Source: Candidatus Iainarchaeum sp.
GTDB taxonomy: Archaea; Iainarchaeota; Iainarchaeia; Iainarchaeales; JAAZKV01
Direction of reading: 5' to 3'
Assembly: GCA_026397015.1 (NCBI GenBank)
Contig: JAPLVR010000002.1
Span: 1-50,917 of the forward strand
Length of the DNA: 50,917 nucleotides
The position numbers were made by a program, and so were the translations under genes. The notes beneath the pieces are model-generated. The model was given only the letters and a program-made list of their open reading frames with translations, made no database searches and was not told the origin of the DNA. Positions 1,796 to 30,866 of the stretch are shown in pieces; within the stretch, counting starts at the first letter, position 1, and each line of letters begins with the position of its first letter.

Positions 1796-3454
1796 ATGCC
1801 TAATAATAAAGAACGCAATTTGTACAAAATTTGGTTTAAGGTGTTTGTTTTGTTCGACCCGAAATACGACGAGCCCAATTATAATCCCGGCGGCGGCTAT
1901 TATGGCGATGACCAGCCGCAGGGCAATTCCATTTCCGTCGGCCCAGTAGTCAATTTGCTCAAGAAGTATAAAATGCTTATTATTGTCGGGGTAATAGGAA
2001 TTATTGCAATTGCATTGATAATGAACTGGCTCAACTCAAATCAGGATGTTACGATAACCGTCAGGGAGCTTGACACGGGGACAAAAATAATTTCCAACAT
2101 ATCGGTAAAGGACGAGTCAGGAACAAAAACAATAAAAACTTTTGCGGCACAGGATTCTGCGACAATAAATCTTCCTTATGGAAAATACCTTTTGACTGTT
2201 TCAAGCACGAGTACAGGGACATATAATACAATCACCAATGAGCCTCTTATTGTTCCAATTGATTCAACTGATTTGGTCAAAAAAACAAAGTCTATAATAC
2301 TGCACAGGGACAGGACGGCGGATGTTAAAATTTATATGGATGTTTTGGATTTGTATGGAACAAGGGACATTAACGGAACGGTTGAAATCACAAACACCGG
2401 CAAAAAGGACATTGTAAATACAAATTTAAAGGTTGTAAACGAGGACGCGAGTATAAATGAAGGCGATTTGGAAGTTAATTTTGCAGAGCAGGGAAACAAA
2501 TTTCCTCTAACTGTTTATCAGGGGTCAAGCCAGTCGGTGGCCTTTACCGTAAAGATGAATAAGGCGGTTTCGGCCGAAAAAAAGGTTAAATTAATGGTGA
2601 AGCTTGAGGGCATGGAAGCTTCCACCGAGAGCGGGAAAAACGGTGCGGAAAAGGAGCTCACTGCAAATCCTGCCTCAACATTAACTGTAACAACTTCGAA
2701 TGCGGTAAGCGCCAGGGCGCTTGAGAAAAAAACGATTGACGTTAAAATATCGAATACTGGCAAGTATGACGCGGACGAAATTTCAGTTGAATTGGTTGCC
2801 CAGCCCGGTTCAGAGGGCATGATAGACTGGTTTAGATTCATTTCTCCGGCAAGCGGAAAAAACACTCTTCAGATTGTCGATTCGCTGGCCAAGGGAAAAA
2901 ACACCGGCAAGGCGGTGCAGCTTTATTTCAATCCTCCTGTCGAGGCGGAGCAGGGCGACGAATTTTTTGGAACGATAATTGTGAGTTCCCCTTCGATTGC
3001 AAGTTCGATAGAAGTCGGCGTCAAGTACACTGTAAGTGAATCTGTTAAGAGGACAATTACGCTGAACGGAATAAGCAGCCCCGTTGAGGTAAAGTTTGAC
3101 AGCAAGGAAAATAAATATAATATTCTTGACAAGAAAGATATCACTTTGAAGAATACCGGCAATGTGGATGTGGAAAATGTTGTTTTCGCGCTCGATGCCG
3201 GGGGTCAGACAAACTTTTCGTGTGCGAATTGGGTTAAAATATTGGAAGCTGATCCGACAACCGGCGAACTTACGTTTAGCGAAATAGTGAAGGGCGGCTC
3301 TTCCATTCCCTTTACCATAAGAATAGAGATTGATTCGGAAGCAACTGAAAATGATCCGGGCGTATGCCATTTTTACTGGTCTGGAAACATAAAGGGCGAG
3401 TTATCAGAATTTGTCGGCGGCGACGCGGTAATAACTATAATTCCGAGAGATTAA
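1796..3454 (+). CDS. Membrane-anchored surface protein with several Ig/CARDB-like beta domains
   Basis: One TM helix (MLIIVGVIGIIAIALIM) and repeated I/L-x-N-T-G motifs (EITNTGK, KISNTGK, TLKNTGN). True start may be near 1850. Confidence 0.7.
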   Translation: MPNNKERNLYKIWFKVFVLFDPKYDEPNYNPGGGYYGDDQPQGNSISVGPVVNLLKKYKMLIIVGVIGIIAIALIMNWLNSNQDVTITVRELDTGTKIISNISVKDESGTKTIKTFAAQDSATINLPYGKYLLTVSSTSTGTYNTITNEPLIVPIDSTDLVKKTKSIILHRDRTADVKIYMDVLDLYGTRDINGTVEITNTGKKDIVNTNLKVVNEDASINEGDLEVNFAEQGNKFPLTVYQGSSQSVAFTVKMNKAVSAEKKVKLMVKLEGMEASTESGKNGAEKELTANPASTLTVTTSNAVSARALEKKTIDVKISNTGKYDADEISVELVAQPGSEGMIDWFRFISPASGKNTLQIVDSLAKGKNTGKAVQLYFNPPVEAEQGDEFFGTIIVSSPSIASSIEVGVKYTVSESVKRTITLNGISSPVEVKFDSKENKYNILDKKDITLKNTGNVDVENVVFALDAGGQTNFSCANWVKILEADPTTGELTFSEIVKGGSSIPFTIRIEIDSEATENDPGVCHFYWSGNIKGELSEFVGGDAVITIIPRD

Positions 3455-3509: not shown

Positions 3510-4925
3510 TTAATTTGTTATACTTTTTAGCAATTTATCGAGTATAGTGTCTTTTTTATGTTCTTCACGAGTTAGAACTTCCAGATTTGACAACTCATTA
3601 TTTCTTTTGGCGAAGTCTTTGTGATGGACCTCATAAGAAATCCAAGGAAGTCGGTATATGTTTCTGTTTTTGTTGTAGATAAACTTTTTAGCATACCAGC
3701 GGTGAAAATATTCACCTGGTTGTCCTGGATGATTTAAGTTTTTTGCGAATGTTTCATATCCTTCTTCATTAATTATTACTTTGTAACCTTGTTTATTTAG
3801 CCGTGGCATATTATTTTCTATCTCCAGATTCAGTCGTTCTTTTTCGTTTTGTATTCTTTCCTTCTTTAATAATTTTGTGCTTTCAGATATCGAATTTTTA
3901 TCGTTTTCCATTTGAATTAGTCTTTTTCCCATTTTTTGAATCGCAGTCTCTTCTTTCTTTTTTAATTTAGCTTCTAAATCAGATTCTTTTGCCCCATATT
4001 CAGAATCTAACTTAGTTAATTGTTTTCTTTTTTGTTTTATGCTATTCTTAAGTTTTTCCAGCTCAGCATTAAATTGTCTTTCTTTATGTAAATTTTGAGT
4101 TATTTCTAAATCAATTATTCGCGCTTTTTCTTTAAGAATTTTTAGGTTAGTTTCTGCAAATTTGTTTTGTTGTTCAGCTTTTTGTTTTTTGTTGTCTAAG
4201 TAAAATTTGGCTAAAACTATTGAAATTGTTATAATTAAAATAACAATTATCCCGGTGAATGTCAAGACTCCTTCTCGTTCAGCTTTTTGTTTGGCAATCA
4301 AAGCAGCTTGATTGTCAAGAACATCTTGTTTAATTTTTTCTGATTCAGTTGAGCAAATTTCTTTAACACAAAACCCACTGCCGCATAGTGAATCAGAAGT
4401 GCATGTTGCTCCATCATTTAAGCAGTTTGTATCGCTTCCAGATGGGCATTTTTTACAGGTTGTATTTGATATTAATTCATATTTTTGGTAAGTAAAATTA
4501 TTGTCAACAAAACTAAAGGAGATATCCTCATATCCTTCAAATCTACAATAAGATGAGTCGTAGGATGTGTTAAGTCTATAGTAATCTCGGGGGTTGATAG
4601 AAAACGTTTGTTCCCTTTGATATTTTATGCCACTACCAGAACATATGCTAGACGGTGTCAGCCACCATTTATATTGCATTCTTACAGTTAAAAGAAAATC
4701 GGTTTCATTGTGTGTGTCAAAAGAATTATCTAAAAAATTATTAATATTGATCGCGCTTGATGTTGCAGGGGGGTATAAAGTAGTGATTAATTCATTAGTG
4801 TCTAATGAATAGACATTTTGAAAAGTTTGTTCAGATGGAACGCTTATGGCATACTGACAATCTAAGGAATAAACAAAAGATAAAAATAATAAAGTTGTTG
4901 CCGCCAGAAAGAGGGCTTTTTTCAT
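3510..4925 (-). CDS. Membrane-anchored HNH endonuclease (signal peptide, Cys-rich ectodomain, TM, coiled coil, C-terminal HNH)
   Basis: Signal MKKALFLAATTLLFLSFVYS; Cys cluster CLNDGATCTSDSLCGSGFCVKEIC; TM FTGIIVILIITISIVLA; coiled coil; HRW...YEVHHKDFAKRNNELSNLEVLTREEH (HNH_3 type). Confidence 0.8.
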   Translation of the reverse strand: MKKALFLAATTLLFLSFVYSLDCQYAISVPSEQTFQNVYSLDTNELITTLYPPATSSAININNFLDNSFDTHNETDFLLTVRMQYKWWLTPSSICSGSGIKYQREQTFSINPRDYYRLNTSYDSSYCRFEGYEDISFSFVDNNFTYQKYELISNTTCKKCPSGSDTNCLNDGATCTSDSLCGSGFCVKEICSTESEKIKQDVLDNQAALIAKQKAEREGVLTFTGIIVILIITISIVLAKFYLDNKKQKAEQQNKFAETNLKILKEKARIIDLEITQNLHKERQFNAELEKLKNSIKQKRKQLTKLDSEYGAKESDLEAKLKKKEETAIQKMGKRLIQMENDKNSISESTKLLKKERIQNEKERLNLEIENNMPRLNKQGYKVIINEEGYETFAKNLNHPGQPGEYFHRWYAKKFIYNKNRNIYRLPWISYEVHHKDFAKRNNELSNLEVLTREEHKKDTILDKLLKSITN

Positions 4926-5061: not shown

Positions 5062-5227
5062 AGCCCCTGGAGGGAATCGAACCCTCGACATACTGCTAGT
5101 TCTCGCTTTTTTTAATTTTATCCCGAATTAATGAAAGTTTTTTTTCTTTGGGATAACGTAACACTTTCTTTTTCTAAAAGAAAGGGTCCGTTACGAAGCA
5201 GTTGCTCTACCGCTGAGCCACAGGGGC
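5062..5227 (-). tRNA. tRNA-Thr(CGT) with 94-nt intron at 37/38 (intron 5098-5191)
   Basis: 5' exon GCCCCTGTGGCTCAGCGGTAGAGCAACTGCTTCGTA (5227-5192); 3' exon AGCAGTATGTCGAGGGTTCGATTCCCTCCAGGGGCT (5097-5062); acceptor, D, anticodon and T stems all pair. Confidence 0.85.
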
Positions 5228-25589: not shown

Positions 25590-26030
25590 ATGGAAAAAAG
25601 GCGGCTTGTCGGCATAATCGTTTTCGACGGGGAGAAATTTCTTCTCCTTCACCGTGTTTTGAACTGGAGGGGGTGGGAGTACCCGAAGGGCGGTTTAAAC
25701 GGGGATGAAACTTGCGAGGGTGCAATCGGAAGGGAGTTGTTTGAGGAAACGGGGCTGAAAAAGTTTGAAATAATTTCAAAGGTGAATGAATTCAGTTTTT
25801 TTGACAGCAGCAGAAGAGCGGATTCAATCATTACCAATTATTTGGTCCGCGTTTCAAGCAATTCAAAAGTTTCCTTCCGGCATCAGGCACTTGAGAACGG
25901 CGAATTGGAAATAGAGCACGATTCCTTCAAATGGTTCTTTCCCAAGAAAGCGGTGCAGGCGCTTACTCACAAGGACAAGAAGGAAACCCTTAGAGAGACC
26001 ATAAAGATACTCGGGCTGGAAGGAGCCTGA
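25590..26030 (+). CDS. NUDIX hydrolase (Ap4A hydrolase-like)
   Basis: WEYPKGG..GDE......RELFEETG; EHDSFKW. Confidence 0.88.
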   Translation: MEKRRLVGIIVFDGEKFLLLHRVLNWRGWEYPKGGLNGDETCEGAIGRELFEETGLKKFEIISKVNEFSFFDSSRRADSIITNYLVRVSSNSKVSFRHQALENGELEIEHDSFKWFFPKKAVQALTHKDKKETLRETIKILGLEGA

Positions 26031-26048
26031 TTTTTTGCAGGTGATTTG

Positions 26049-26252
26049 ATGAGTTTTGACATGTTTGGGAAAAAAGAGGAAATCAAAGAAAATATTTCTG
26101 AAGAAAAAAACGAGGCTTCTGTGCCGCAGGGAAAGTATTCCGAGCCATGCGCTTTATGCGGAAAGGGTCCGAGCGACAAGAAGTGGGCCGGAAATTATTG
26201 GCACAAAAAGTGTTTGCGCCGCGCGAAAAAAGGCGCGATGAAAATGGTTTGA
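26049..26252 (+). CDS. Small zinc-finger protein
   Basis: CALC...WHKKC motif; GGTGA RBS upstream. Confidence 0.65.
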   Translation: MSFDMFGKKEEIKENISEEKNEASVPQGKYSEPCALCGKGPSDKKWAGNYWHKKCLRRAKKGAMKMV

Positions 26253-26312
26253 AATAGTTTTTCAAAGGTAAATTTGCGTAGTTTTTTTGATTTGTGAGGT
26301 CTTTGGCACAAA

Positions 26313-27206
26313 TCATAATCTTTTTAGAACGCGTTGCATTTTTTTGTTAACGGCCTTGTCTATAGTGGCTGCTTTTTGGCGGGTAATGCCGTATCTTTTC
26401 GCGATTTCGGTTACTGTGGACGGATTTCCGTTGAAGCCCTTTTTTGCAATCCAGATTTCTTTGTCGCGATCTTTTATATTCAGTTTTTTAAGTCCCTTGA
26501 GAACTTCGCTTATTAAATCCCTTCTTTCCAGTTCTTTACGCAAATTTTTTCTATCGGCGAGCGTGTCTCCAAACGCCAATGTGTCATACCCTTTCAGGGG
26601 AGCGTCAATTGAAACAATTGAAATTTTTGATTCGAGTCCTCTTTTGACCTGTTTAATGTTCAAACCGGCAGATTTTGCGATTTCCTCCACAGTCGGATTT
26701 TTTCCAAGTGCAATTAAAGCATTTTCTGTCCTTTTTATTTTATTTTGCAGATTTTGCATGCATACAGGGATTCGTATTGTTTTTTCTTTGTTCTGATATT
26801 CTCGCAGTATTTGCCTTTCAATTGTTTTAGCCGCATAGGTTGAGAATTTCGCCCCGGTCTTTTTTGCTTTCGCCGGATCAAACTTTTTTACCGCAAGTTT
26901 TAGTGCACCCTCACCGATTGAAGTAAGATAAGGGAGGTCCAAATTTTTTGTCGCGTGTGTCTGTTCAAATCGGCTTGCAATTGAAACCACTAAGCGCAGG
27001 TGGGAATTGCATATCTCCTGCATAGCGTTTTTGTCGCCTTTTTTCGCCCTTTCAACAAGCATTGCGACTTTTTTCTGCTGGATGAATTTTGTCTGGTGGA
27101 CTCTGCGGAGGTATGCTGCCGGGGCACCCGTAGCGGCCCGGCGTTTTTCCAATTCTGGGGGTATTGGTTTGGGCTTCTTTCCGGGCAGGTTTAGGCTTCT
27201 TTTCAT
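26313..27206 (-). CDS. Sigma-70 family (RpoD/RpoS-like) RNA polymerase sigma-factor homolog, divergent
   Basis: GDKNAMQEICNSHLRLVVSIA (r2.1), AVKKFDP..GAKFSTYA (r2.2-2.3), TIRIPV (r2.4/3.0), PTVEEIA and VSIDAP (r3), TVTEIAKRYGITRQ (r4.2 HTH). Confidence 0.9.
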   Translation of the reverse strand: MKRSLNLPGKKPKPIPPELEKRRAATGAPAAYLRRVHQTKFIQQKKVAMLVERAKKGDKNAMQEICNSHLRLVVSIASRFEQTHATKNLDLPYLTSIGEGALKLAVKKFDPAKAKKTGAKFSTYAAKTIERQILREYQNKEKTIRIPVCMQNLQNKIKRTENALIALGKNPTVEEIAKSAGLNIKQVKRGLESKISIVSIDAPLKGYDTLAFGDTLADRKNLRKELERRDLISEVLKGLKKLNIKDRDKEIWIAKKGFNGNPSTVTEIAKRYGITRQKAATIDKAVNKKMQRVLKRL

Positions 27207-29083
27207 TGCCGGTTTCCCCCTATTTCTTTTTTTAACAGTTCGCTGAGCATTTTTCCGTCCGTTCCCCGCAGTGCGGGGTCTTTCATCAAATCCCCCATTA
27301 ATGGTTTTATCGCATCCATGCCTCTCGCTTTCACAAGCGCCGCGTTTTTTTCAACAACTTCCCTTATTTTTGCCCCGATTTCCTTTTCATCAATTTTTTT
27401 CTGGCCCGAAATTATTTCCTGCGCGCTTTTTCCCCTGCTTAGCTCAATTATTGCCTGCCTCAAATGGCTCTTTCCTATTTTTTCTTTCGCCTCCGCAACA
27501 AGGAGTTCTTTTATTTCTTTCAAATTTATTTCGTCAGTGTTAATCCCCTCTCTTTTCAGTTCAACAAGAAGTTCAAGCAGGAGCGCCGCGCTTGTTTTCG
27601 GATTCGCGCCGCTTTCAACCGCCTCTTCAAAGAACCGTGCATAGTTGCTCAGCTTCATCTTTTCGGCAAGCTGTTCGCTTAAACCCGATTTAATGTAATG
27701 TTTTTTCCTCTGCTCCGCGCTTTTCGGCAGCTTTTTTCTGATTTCCTTCAGCAACTTTTCGGAAATTTCCTCTTCGTGCAAATCCGTTTCAGGGTACATT
27801 CTCGCTTCTCCTGCAAGCGGCCTTTGGTATTCGGATGAGCCGTCTTCAAGCGCTCCGCGGGTTTCTTCCGGCACCCTCTCGAACGCTATAAGAATTCTTT
27901 TTTTGATTTCTTCGAATGCCCTTTCCGCTTTTTCTTTTTCCGCGGCTATTATTATGAATGAGTCATTTTTGTTGCATTCGAGTTCGTTGAGCACTGTTTC
28001 GACTTCGCTTTCCGAGATTCCGTATGCGGGCAATTCATCCCTGTGCAGCAGCCCGGAAACTCCAGCCGCTTTTGCACAGTTGCTGAGCTCCGTTCCAAAC
28101 CTTTTCGCGCCGACTTTTGTCCCCAAAATTCCCTTCATTTCTTTTAGCCTCATTCCAAACCATTTTTTTCCCCTCACGAATTTGGCCTCGGTGTTTGCGA
28201 ATGCATCGGAAATTTCTTTCGGCGCGCCGAAGATGTTTTGCGTATCCGGTTGTTTTGTTTTTTGTGATGCAAAGCTTTGGCAGAGTTTTTTCTTTAATTC
28301 GAGCAGGTCCAGCTGCCTTTCCACTTCCTTTTCAACAACCGTTCCGAGCAGTTCCAGTTCCTGGCACCCTTTTATTTCGCATCTCGCCCCATTGGCGATG
28401 GAAATATTTACATCCTGCCTTATAGTGCCTTTTCCCCTTTTCGTCCTTCCCGTAAGCCTCATTATTTCCCCGATTTTTCCCGCAACCTCGGCCGTTTCCT
28501 CCGGGCTTTTTATGTCCGGCGCAGTGGTAAATTCAACCAGCGGTATCCCGAGTCTGTCGAGATTATAGTGCACCATGCCGTGCTCTTTTTTTATGGGCCG
28601 TGCGGCGTCCTCTTCCAGCACAATCTGTTCGACACCTATTTTTTTCCCGTTCACTTCAAGCGAGCCGCCGAGCGAAACCAGCATCGTCCTTTGAAAAGCG
28701 GAAGTGTTGCTCCCGTCAATAACCGTTTTTCTCATCACGATTGCTTTGCTCACTGGGCTGCTTTCGCACAGCAGCGCAATCTCAAGCGCCGTTTCCAAGG
28801 CCGTTTTATTGAGGGGCTGCGGCGGCTCCTCATCGATTTCAATCAGTGAAATGTTTTCGGTATTTCCGGAATAGTGGAAGGTCTCCCCGCGCCTGAACGC
28901 ATCGATGGCCGCGCGGTCGAATTCCCCCAATTCTGAGGCAACCGGCCTCAGCTTTCTCTCAACGGTAAAGTTCAATTCGTCGCTCAGAACGCTTTTGTTC
29001 CTGATGAAAAGCTTTCCGGTGTCGAGCTGTTGATGCACTTCCAAGCCGCATTTGAAGCCGAGTTTTTGGCAATCGGTTTGCAT
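27203..29083 (-). CDS. gatE: Glu-tRNA(Gln) amidotransferase subunit E
   Basis: GLEVHQQL, RKTVIDGSNTSAFQRT, LEEDAAR, LDRLGIPL, GTIRQDVNISI, RMYPETD. Confidence 0.96.
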   Translation of the reverse strand: MQTDCQKLGFKCGLEVHQQLDTGKLFIRNKSVLSDELNFTVERKLRPVASELGEFDRAAIDAFRRGETFHYSGNTENISLIEIDEEPPQPLNKTALETALEIALLCESSPVSKAIVMRKTVIDGSNTSAFQRTMLVSLGGSLEVNGKKIGVEQIVLEEDAARPIKKEHGMVHYNLDRLGIPLVEFTTAPDIKSPEETAEVAGKIGEIMRLTGRTKRGKGTIRQDVNISIANGARCEIKGCQELELLGTVVEKEVERQLDLLELKKKLCQSFASQKTKQPDTQNIFGAPKEISDAFANTEAKFVRGKKWFGMRLKEMKGILGTKVGAKRFGTELSNCAKAAGVSGLLHRDELPAYGISESEVETVLNELECNKNDSFIIIAAEKEKAERAFEEIKKRILIAFERVPEETRGALEDGSSEYQRPLAGEARMYPETDLHEEEISEKLLKEIRKKLPKSAEQRKKHYIKSGLSEQLAEKMKLSNYARFFEEAVESGANPKTSAALLLELLVELKREGINTDEINLKEIKELLVAEAKEKIGKSHLRQAIIELSRGKSAQEIISGQKKIDEKEIGAKIREVVEKNAALVKARGMDAIKPLMGDLMKDPALRGTDGKMLSELLKKEIGGNRQ

Positions 29084-30500: not shown

Positions 30501-30866
30501 TTAGCAGTAATACCCGTAGTAGCCGCATGCCGACCCGCGCGTGTATGAGAAGCCGTAGCCGTCGTTGTAAAACGATATTGTGCTGTAATTTGAGTAAGAC
30601 GGGTAGGAATAATAGCTGTTATAATAAGACGGCGTGTAGTAGGTAGTCGCAGGGTAGTAATAGTTGTAGCCGTAAACCCCGTAATAAGGGTAGTAGTGGT
30701 TGTATGTGTAAGCTTGGGCAGGGGTCGAATAATAGACACTCGGTTTGTAATTGTTAGTGTAATAGTACTGATTGTAGCCGCTAAATCCTGAATAAGCAAA
30801 CGCTCCGCTAACCATCAGTACAAGCATAAGAATTACTGAATAACCCACACGCTTCGTATTACTCAT
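30501..30866 (-). CDS. Secreted tyrosine-rich low-complexity protein
   Basis: Signal peptide ending AFA; 35 Tyr in about 97 mature residues (hand count). Confidence 0.75.
   Translation of the reverse strand: MSNTKRVGYSVILMLVLMVSGAFAYSGFSGYNQYYYTNNYKPSVYYSTPAQAYTYNHYYPYYGVYGYNYYYPATTYYTPSYYNSYYSYPSYSNYSTISFYNDGYGFSYTRGSACGYYGYYC

Follow-up and report, generated by a model that had tools for sequence, protein, structure and literature searches.

A full-length sigma-70 homologue with altered conserved residues in the genome of an Iainarchaeum archaeon

Introduction

Archaeal transcription is, to our knowledge, held to be sigma-free. The subject of this study is a gene for a bacterial-type sigma-70 factor in an archaeal genome, which lies on the minus strand at positions 26,313 to 27,206 of a 50,917-nucleotide stretch of DNA from Candidatus Iainarchaeum sp. 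(contig JAPLVR010000002.1 of the GenBank assembly GCA_026397015.1). This stretch, analysed at its full length and called the window below, is one whole contig of a six-contig genome of 898,628 bases that is 85% complete. The gene was first pointed out in a reading of the letters alone, referred to here as the original prediction, which saw in it a sigma factor with changed core-binding and melting residues and a basic leader, and which proposed either a sigma repurposed as a stand-alone archaeal DNA-binding regulator or a decoy exported against the RNA polymerase of a bacterial partner or prey.

That DPANN archaea carry sigma-70 genes has been published before. According to Castelle et al. 2021 (PMC8204110), such genes (fam00359) are prevalent in Woesearchaeota, mis-binning is excluded, no anti-sigma factor was found and the mechanism is unclear, which agrees with what the original prediction stated of sigma homologues without a known function in a few DPANN genomes. 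A second paper (PMC12647753) describes a pair of divergent rpoS-like genes from viruses of DPANN archaea, of which one lies in a prophage, and a third argues that sigma, TFB and TFIIB are homologues (PMC4581349). Our literature searches, as far as the accessible parts of the sources go, found no experimental study of an archaeal sigma homologue. What is new in the present work is the residue-level pattern of change, its generality across the archaeal copies examined, and the evidence that the copy in the window is a recent, integrated accessory gene.

The sigma-70-like gene and its locus

The gene is a 297-amino-acid open reading frame (ORF) whose N-terminus is the one quoted in the original prediction, and its open frame holds no start codon further upstream. 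Its start overlaps the stop codon of gatE in the letters ATGA, just as had been read, and the neighbour is the archaeal GatE by the NCBIfam equivalog NF003107 (677.8 bits against a cut-off of 456), with GatD encoded further upstream of it (Table 1).

Full-length profiles, solved chains and the predicted fold agree that regions 2, 3 and 4 are all present in the protein. In the profile search that had been proposed as a check, Pfam Sigma70_r3 matches residues 155-223 with 45 bits (gathering score 25.3); Sigma70_r2 reaches 22.6 bits, just under its gathering score of 24, with region 2 aligned in the full-length models and the solved chains, and Sigma70_r4 reaches 16.6 bits, under 24.1 but still collinear in the full-length models. 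The best NCBIfam model is that of RpoS, which is collinear over residues 28-296 with an E value of 4e-36, and RpoD_Cterm matches with 7e-30. The RpoS and RpoD scores amount to a third or less of the equivalog cut-offs, all of which are missed (125 against 378.7 for TIGR02394, 104.3 against 354 for TIGR02393 and 104.7 against 572 for NF006666). Solved sigmaA and sigmaS chains match residues 28-294 with E values from 1.7e-25 to 1e-23, and a match over residues 31-291 also stands at 1.7e-25. The AlphaFold2 model, computed from a 102-row alignment, is all-helical with a mean predicted local distance difference test score (pLDDT) of 89.8 and values below 50 at residues 1-10 only, and the top Foldseek matches of this model in the PDB are sigmaS and sigmaA in holoenzymes (probability 1.00, template modelling score 0.54-0.56, 268-289 columns). 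The ORF is a real full-length, collinear sigma-70 homologue from region 1.2 (r1.2) to r4.2 with a primary or RpoS-like architecture. With the bacterial group 1/2 sigmas (Escherichia coli RpoS, Bacillus subtilis and Staphylococcus aureus SigA; PDB 5ipl_F, 6omf_F, 7ckq_F and 8x6f_E) it has in common the order r1.2-r2-r3-r4 and the same all-helical three-domain fold with conserved core segments, at 28-31% identity over about 260-290 residues.

The sigma domain also aligns with that of MzaA, a sigma-70 domain protein of the MZA anti-phage system (NCBIfam 84 bits, PADLOC 50.2 bits). However, the match covers only positions 427-655 of the 683 in the profile, which are its sigma part, the cut-off is 800 bits and no MZA partners lie nearby, so that membership in this defence system was rejected.

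As for the leader, the first 25 residues hold eight K/R, two D/E and five P, and in the model the residues 1-10 are disordered with pLDDT below 50 (the block means over residues 1-30 being 38, 67 and 76). The K/R/P-rich N-terminus was thus rightly described as basic and proline-rich, but it is short rather than extra: it occupies the place of the longer N-terminal parts in other sigmas, and since only about 27 residues, basic ones, precede r1.2, region 1.1 is absent.

Table 1. Features of the sigma-70-like locus in the window, and content of the corresponding slot in related genomes (positions are those of the window unless another contig is named)
Feature	Position	Strand	Basis
Sigma-70-like gene, 297 aa, regions 1.2-4.2, without region 1.1, stop codon included	26313..27206	-	Pfam, NCBIfam, solved chains, AlphaFold2, Foldseek
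Basic K/R/P-rich N-terminal leader, residues 1-25	27132..27206	-	composition, model pLDDT
Region 1.2-like helices, about residues 28-60	27027..27125	-	aligned to r1.2 of SigA/RpoS chains; model helices H28-37, H44-55
Sigma domain 2 (r2.1-r2.4), residues 61-141; r2.1 core LRLVVSIA kept; r2.2 = YLTSIGE	26784..27026	-
Codons of K127-T128 (AAA ACA), the family's Trp-Trp position	26823..26828	-	alignment of 268 relatives
Sigma domain 3 and r3.2 linker, residues 142-223; KTIRIPV kept, next His = Cys149	26538..26783	-	Pfam Sigma70_r3, residues 155-223
Sigma domain 4 (r4.1-r4.2), residues 230-296; derived 'EIW..KGF' in r4.1	26319..26519	-
r4.2 recognition helix TRQKAATID (family TRERxRQIE)	26358..26384	-
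ATGA start/stop overlap of sigma-like gene and gatE; ATG = 27206-27204	27203..27206	-
gatE, archaeal Glu-tRNA(Gln) amidotransferase subunit E; upstream flank of slot	27203..29083	-	NF003107; 84% identical in same-genus genome
orf68, conserved Cys-rich 68-aa ORF, convergent; downstream flank of slot	26046..26252	+	tblastn
60-bp spacer from convergent orf68 to sigma-like gene; no element-like terminal repeats	26253..26312	.
Slot in G003: ~155 bp, no gene
Slot in G005: small unrelated ORF
Slot in G006: small unrelated ORF
Slot in G001 (same genus; gatE 84% identical): 302-aa ORF, opposite strand	L038 8150-9058 (G001:C2)	-

Conserved residues that are replaced in the sigma-like protein

The motif statistics are based on the 268 nearest relatives aligned to the sigma-like protein, 149 of them from a HMMER pass over representatives and 119 from a search of 5.8 billion proteins. 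The Trp dyad, whose loss had been noticed in the original prediction, is indeed gone: the two columns hold W in 237 and 261 of the 268 relatives, and the sigma-like protein has K127 and T128. The R/K that comes after the Trp pair in 258 relatives is replaced by E, the following Q (260 relatives) by R, and the His after TIRIPV (236 relatives) by C149. The alteration of r4.2 was also correctly seen, since the E/R/R/Q columns, which are conserved in 264, 262, 259 and 258 relatives, respectively, read Q/K/A/T, and only the first Arg of this region, R276 (R in 256 relatives), is retained. In r2.2 the relatives have (F/L)LDLIQE or DLIQEGN where the sigma-like protein has YLTSIGE; the register is ambiguous by two residues (YLTSIGE by HMMER, TSIGEGA by MAFFT), but in neither reading are the conserved D, Q and N retained, so the claimed replacement of this motif holds in both.

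Altogether 52 columns are at least 85% invariant in the relatives. The sigma-like protein is identical at 36 of them and conservatively replaced at eight, and the remaining eight changes are radical (N to H69, W to K127, W to T128, Q to R131, H to C149, E to Q277, R to A280 and Q to T281), while the core segments LRLVVSIA, KFSTYA and TIRIPV are retained. Among the relatives the median number of these columns retained is 50; the lowest are two at 33 and 34 columns that miss part of the aligned region, one of them recorded as partial, followed by five to seven at 37-40. Going by the literature on the E. coli sigma70 holoenzyme with promoter DNA, we take seven of the eight radical changes to fall on the residues that contact or melt the -10 element (the Trp dyad) and contact the -12, extended -10 and -35 positions; D-L-I-Q-E-G-N in r2.2 is the core-docking motif and R-E-R-x-R-Q in r4.2 serves the reading of the -35 element. 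With these roles, the pattern indicates that promoter-reading residues have been selectively lost while the fold has been retained.

The retention of 36 of 52 invariant columns is to be compared with an overall identity of about 36% (binomial P 1e-6). In addition, the DNA of the gene was made to drift neutrally in simulation until 36% identity was reached; none of 300 frames stayed open, with 11.6 stops on average. Therefore, most of the divergence arose under selection for the fold, and by the same simulation a sigma match by chance is excluded.

The isoelectric point (pI) of the sigma-like protein is 10.33, above the maximum of 10.23 and the median of 8.04 for the sigma parts of 266 relatives; the 406 host ORFs of at least 250 amino acids have a median of 8.87. 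A Kyte-Doolittle scan of the protein found no signal peptide or membrane segment, the maximum being 0.78 with a 19-residue window and 0.88 with a 10-residue window in the first 50 residues.

Unlike the bacterial group 1/2 sigmas, the archaeal protein has no region 1.1, a pI of 10.3 and a host without bacterial RNA polymerase, and its Trp pair, -12 Gln, extended -10 His, three of the four -35 residues and the r2.2 docking motif are replaced. Measured against a working bacterial sigma, it lacks the r2.3 pair for melting, the residues that read the -35 element, the docking motif of r2.2, a partner core enzyme and, with regard to group 1, the acidic region 1.1.

Relatives and other archaeal sigma-like genes

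The best non-self match among the 5.8 billion proteins has 34% identity and 122 bits. The HMMER pass covered 1.84 billion representatives and gave 38,225 matches at E <= 0.001, of which two non-self matches lie below 1e-30; the best non-self match has 131 bits and 36% identity, and the highest identity among the matches listed is 38%. The named matches are bacterial, from Patescibacteria, Peribacteraceae, Thermoleophilia, Solirubrobacterales, Gaiellaceae and a relative of Limisphaera. A cluster look-up gave names for two of ten clusters (Solirubrobacterales, Limisphaera), and the best match, P0121, was not among these. No bacterial donor could be named from the matches, and a quick tree with support by the Shimodaira-Hasegawa-like approximate likelihood ratio test (SH-aLRT) shows no starred clade that holds the sigma-like protein.

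Within the class, matches to TIGR02393 were found in 28 of 215 genomes (G000, the host genome, included), none of them over the cut-off and three on single-contig genomes or on contigs above 50 kb. We count as archaeal the full-length copies that do not lie on two very short contigs; of the seven besides the one in the window, three are on contigs above 50 kb and the other four, including one in the genome G031, are assigned by bin only. To the primary-sigma profile the sigma-like protein of the window scores 271 bits and the other archaeal-counted copies 38-122 bits. All seven other full-length copies counted as archaeal also lack the Trp pair and RERxRQ in r4.2. Both copies on contigs of at most 3.2 kb, L003 (G211:C75) and L004 (G079:C74), are fully canonical, and they are therefore probably bacterial contamination of archaeal bins.

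In the quick tree the sigma-like protein pairs with the ORF of G031, which is binned to the same family, with an SH-aLRT support of 94 and a very long branch. The rare states W252 (none of the 268 relatives) and K256 (one of 268) are both present in the G031 ORF and therefore support the pairing. The G031 contig is 7,914 bases long, carries an M23 peptidase and has no archaeal marker, and because of this shortness and lack of a marker its assignment rests on binning alone. Next in the tree stands P0149 (support 81), which likewise shows K in the first of the two Trp columns and, in r4.2, T-R-Q...G-T. A single clade of all eight archaeal-counted copies is not rejected: by log-likelihood the constrained tree is ahead of the free quick tree by 25.4 units (P of the approximately unbiased test 0.837), for a group that was named after the first tree and to which long-branch pull applies.

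In five other archaeal copies of 365-468 amino acids, L006, L007, L008, L011 and L014 (in G147, G146, G124, G054 and G051), the Trp pair and the -35 residues are gone and a D-L-I-Q-like r2.2 has been kept. Such copies could still dock on the clamp coiled-coil, whereas the sigma-like protein of the window has no r2.2 of this kind. Several of the nearest matches in the HMMER pass, P0123, P0125, P0151, P0156, P0219 and P0227, are 800-996 amino acids long; their sigma part lies at about residues 170-470, and a further 340-550 residues extend the C-terminus beyond it.

With the fam00359 genes of DPANN archaea, compared by description (Castelle et al. 2021, PMC8204110), the gene in the window has in common that a sigma-70 gene occurs in a small archaeal genome beside TBP/TFB and among archaeal neighbours. 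Unlike the other class copies, it is far closer to the bacterial primary sigmas and stands alone at no more than 38% identity. The DPANN-viral rpoS-like genes, again compared by description (PMC12647753), are likewise divergent, RpoS-like and DPANN-associated; in contrast to them, the gene in the window has no viral context and no viral relative was found for it.

A variable slot between gatE and orf68

In four relatives the flanks of the gene are syntenic, and the content of the slot between gatE and orf68 differs from one to another (Table 1). The downstream flank orf68, with a C-x2-C ... C pattern, is 57-74% identical in all four relatives examined by tblastn and is always convergent with gatE; no Pfam, PADLOC or PHROG match was found for it. 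Around the sigma-like gene the search for mobile-element borders gave only short repeats of chance size. The 302-residue ORF in the slot of the same-genus genome was considered as a diverged sigma and rejected (hhalign probability 0.15%); it has no Pfam, PADLOC or PHROG match, and judged by eye its N-terminal part is winged-helix-like.

When the sigma-like protein was used as the query, a match was found in one of 60 relatives and none in the same-genus genome, and a lineage profile built from it, the G031 ORF and P0149 found this lineage in two of 38 family genomes. The sigma-like gene is not ancestral; it is a species-specific accessory insertion in a variable slot. The original prediction spoke of a native archaeal context, which is right in that the contig is archaeal, but overstated in that a same-genus genome carries an unrelated gene at this place. 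The evidence points to a recent, integrated accessory gene that the 0.9-Mb chromosome, of DPANN type, acquired horizontally.

The archaeal host, the gene junction and expression

The contig is genuinely archaeal, with genes of archaeal or eukaryotic type for Nop56, fibrillarin, NMD3, a beta-CASP nuclease, GatD/E, deoxyhypusine synthase and ATP-dependent DNA ligase, and an intron-bearing tRNA. The host encodes TFB, TBP and a single RNA polymerase largest subunit of the archaeal split type (Rpo1N, 871 amino acids, Rpb1 domains 1-5). A second RNA polymerase core of bacterial type was not found in the host genome, which has one Rpb1_2 match only and is 85% complete. There is also a third, weak TBP-repeat match in a 109-amino-acid open frame at G000:C1:42450-42641 (plus strand, locus L046; 23.1 bits against a cut-off of 22.9), separate from the regular two-repeat TBP of the host on C5.

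The region 25900-27700, which includes the junction with gatE, is spanned by one contig of 29,225 bases in each of two sequencing runs, with 0 differences and depths of 18.9 and 21.4, so the junction check gave no break; these runs belong to one study, possibly the source study. A run of another study (X3) gave short contigs of 100% identity on both flanks and none over the gene body, the uncovered parts being uninformative. The base composition is host-like as well (GC 0.424; GC at third codon positions 0.413; codon adaptation index 0.722, where the genome has a median of 0.747 and a 25th percentile of 0.726). In the metatranscriptome run X5 an identical contig of 151 nucleotides covers 27064-27214 and another covers part of gatE; the former was not counted as bridging because only 11 letters of it fall on the gatE side. 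This is a weak hint that the sigma-like gene is transcribed, and DNA carry-over is possible.

Interpretation of the sigma-like protein

With the promoter-reading and melting residues as well as the beta-prime-docking residues replaced, and in a host without a bacterial core enzyme, the protein cannot work as a canonical sigma. The explanation that we tentatively favour, which was also one of the two put forward in the original prediction, is that the acquired sigma has been kept as a basic, stand-alone DNA-binding regulator derived from it. Such a strongly basic protein (pI 10.3) would act as a DNA binder with several helix-turn-helix motifs, making contact through the helix-turn-helix of domain 4 (TRQKAATID), domain 3 and the helices of domain 2, and perhaps with a new sequence preference, and the disordered K/R/P-rich tail may aid the binding. 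It might modulate the archaeal transcription by TBP, TFB and RNA polymerase through occupying DNA, for example as a repressor or a nucleoid-type factor, without melting it, and its gene is probably co-transcribed and translationally coupled with gatE.

Several points weigh against this explanation. The loss of promoter-contact residues is equally expected from relaxed selection on unused surfaces and is no proof of a new specificity, and the mapping of contact residues itself comes from the E. coli sigma70 literature rather than from computation. The basic charge partly mirrors the host proteome, in which 25% of the ORFs of at least 250 amino acids have a pI of 9.5 or more. The nearest relatives, at no more than 38% identity, are too distant for the ratio of nonsynonymous to synonymous substitution rates, so that purifying selection in the lineage is not measurable. 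Moreover, the gene is rare (two of 38 family genomes; 28 of 215 class genomes with any sigma-like match) and lies in a variable slot, as would likewise be expected of a transient passenger, and the RNA evidence is a single contig of 151 nucleotides.

It is unlikely that the gene is cargo derived from a mobile element or virus, with a role in the life cycle of an archaeal virus or element such as take-over or exclusion. For such an origin speak the divergent rpoS-like genes that viruses of DPANN archaea carry, in one case a prophage (PMC12647753), and the fact that, of all profiles in any library, phrog_351, a phage sigma family, gives the best score (138.6 bits). Short sigma clusters labelled Uroviricota are among the nearest in the ESM Atlas, which is a lead only, the slot content differs from genome to genome, and in G031, which has the sole other member of the lineage, the contig measures 7.9 kb, encodes an M23 peptidase and is free of archaeal markers. 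However, next to the sigma-like gene the search gave neither an integrase or capsid gene nor any other gene of a virus, terminal repeats were likewise not found, and among the other window ORFs tested against PHROGs nothing appeared except HNH-endonuclease matches for the ORF at 3510-4925, about 21 kb away. No relative was found in IMG/VR, the phage records reach at most 31% identity, below the bacterial matches, and the composition is host-like; on the G031 contig no PHROG viral hallmark was detected.

We regard it as unlikely that the gene is a functionless remnant, namely a sigma that came in by transfer and is being lost, with its frame still open by chance. Its rare and patchy distribution, the variable slot, the loss of canonical functional residues and the want of a partner core enzyme in the host would all suit a remnant. 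They have to be set against an intact ORF with a confident fold, in which 44 of the 52 invariant columns are identical or conservatively replaced, and against the drift simulation, which never left the frame open (0 of 300); a streamlined genome of 0.9 Mb and a gene overlap of 4 bp also leave little room for junk.

A third alternative, which we think quite unlikely, is that the protein is associated with RNA polymerase, its domain 2 docking on the clamp coiled-coil of the archaeal Rpo1N, and would either serve as an alternative initiation factor or compete with TFE/Spt4-5 or TFB. This coiled-coil of archaea and the bacterial beta-prime clamp helices are homologues, and the host segment is strongly conserved in the alignment. 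Re-targeting to a different clamp would call for a changed r2.2, and a D-L-I-Q-like form of this motif is still present in several of the other sigma-like ORFs of archaea; the r2.2 of the protein studied here, however, is the least conserved among the archaeal copies. Sigma and TFB/TFIIB are analogous multi-helix-turn-helix initiation factors and arguably homologous (PMC4581349), yet there is no detectable sequence relation between these factors and the sigma-like protein. The host retains its own TBP and TFB, the rarity (2 of 38) speaks against a basal role, and positive evidence for such a factor was not found. A complex prediction of Rpo1N residues 1-340 with residues 26-145 of the sigma-like protein gave no answer, with a score of 0.00 in both runs and without controls, and counts neither way.

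It would be a long shot to see in this protein the best-preserved member of an archaeal sigma branch that has shed bacterial promoter reading and now acts directly on the archaeal transcription machinery, for example as an accessory factor for or against initiation that docks on the clamp coiled-coil of Rpo1N. If true, this would mean a bacterial-type sigma working with a TBP/TFB-dependent polymerase.

The exported decoy of the original prediction, which would bind the RNA polymerase of a bacterial partner or prey, is highly improbable: beyond the bacterial ancestry of the fold nothing favours it, neither a signal peptide nor a membrane segment is present in the protein, those residues of r2.2 that dock on the core are themselves replaced, and no secretion genes are adjacent. 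A bacterial contaminant or chimeric assembly join, which the contamination-like sigma matches of the class on two contigs of at most 3.2 kb might bring to mind, is practically negligible, as the gene lies mid-contig between archaeal genes with flanks syntenic in four relatives and a host-like composition, and as the 29,225-base contigs of the two runs (possibly of the source study) pass over it with 0 differences.

Of what we found, this protein lends itself most cleanly to a test, being intact, confidently folded and encoded in a verified archaeal chromosome, and it is near enough to the solved sigmas for every functional residue to be mapped. It turns a vague annotation into a testable statement, namely that archaeal sigma-like proteins no longer recognise bacterial promoters. 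If bacterial promoters are not recognised and the host has no bacterial core, then such proteins would be either stand-alone DNA binders or partners of the archaeal RNA polymerase, and either outcome would show the re-use of a basal factor of one domain of life in another.

Other features of the window

Some further observations were made in the window away from the sigma-like gene. The tRNA gene at 5062-5227 (minus strand; Rfam 54.8 bits, missed by ARAGORN) has an insertion of about 96 nucleotides after the anticodon stem, which is probably an intron. It adjoins an ORF of 471 amino acids at 3510-4925 (minus strand) with a C-terminal HNH endonuclease domain, and two ORFs upstream, at 280-1341 and 1796-3454, are without a family match. 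Between hom and gatD, an ORF of 121 amino acids at 30501-30866 (minus strand) has no Pfam match and shows an N-terminal hydrophobic stretch followed by an extremely Tyr-rich remainder, and it is weakly conserved in three of four relatives (38-65% over parts).

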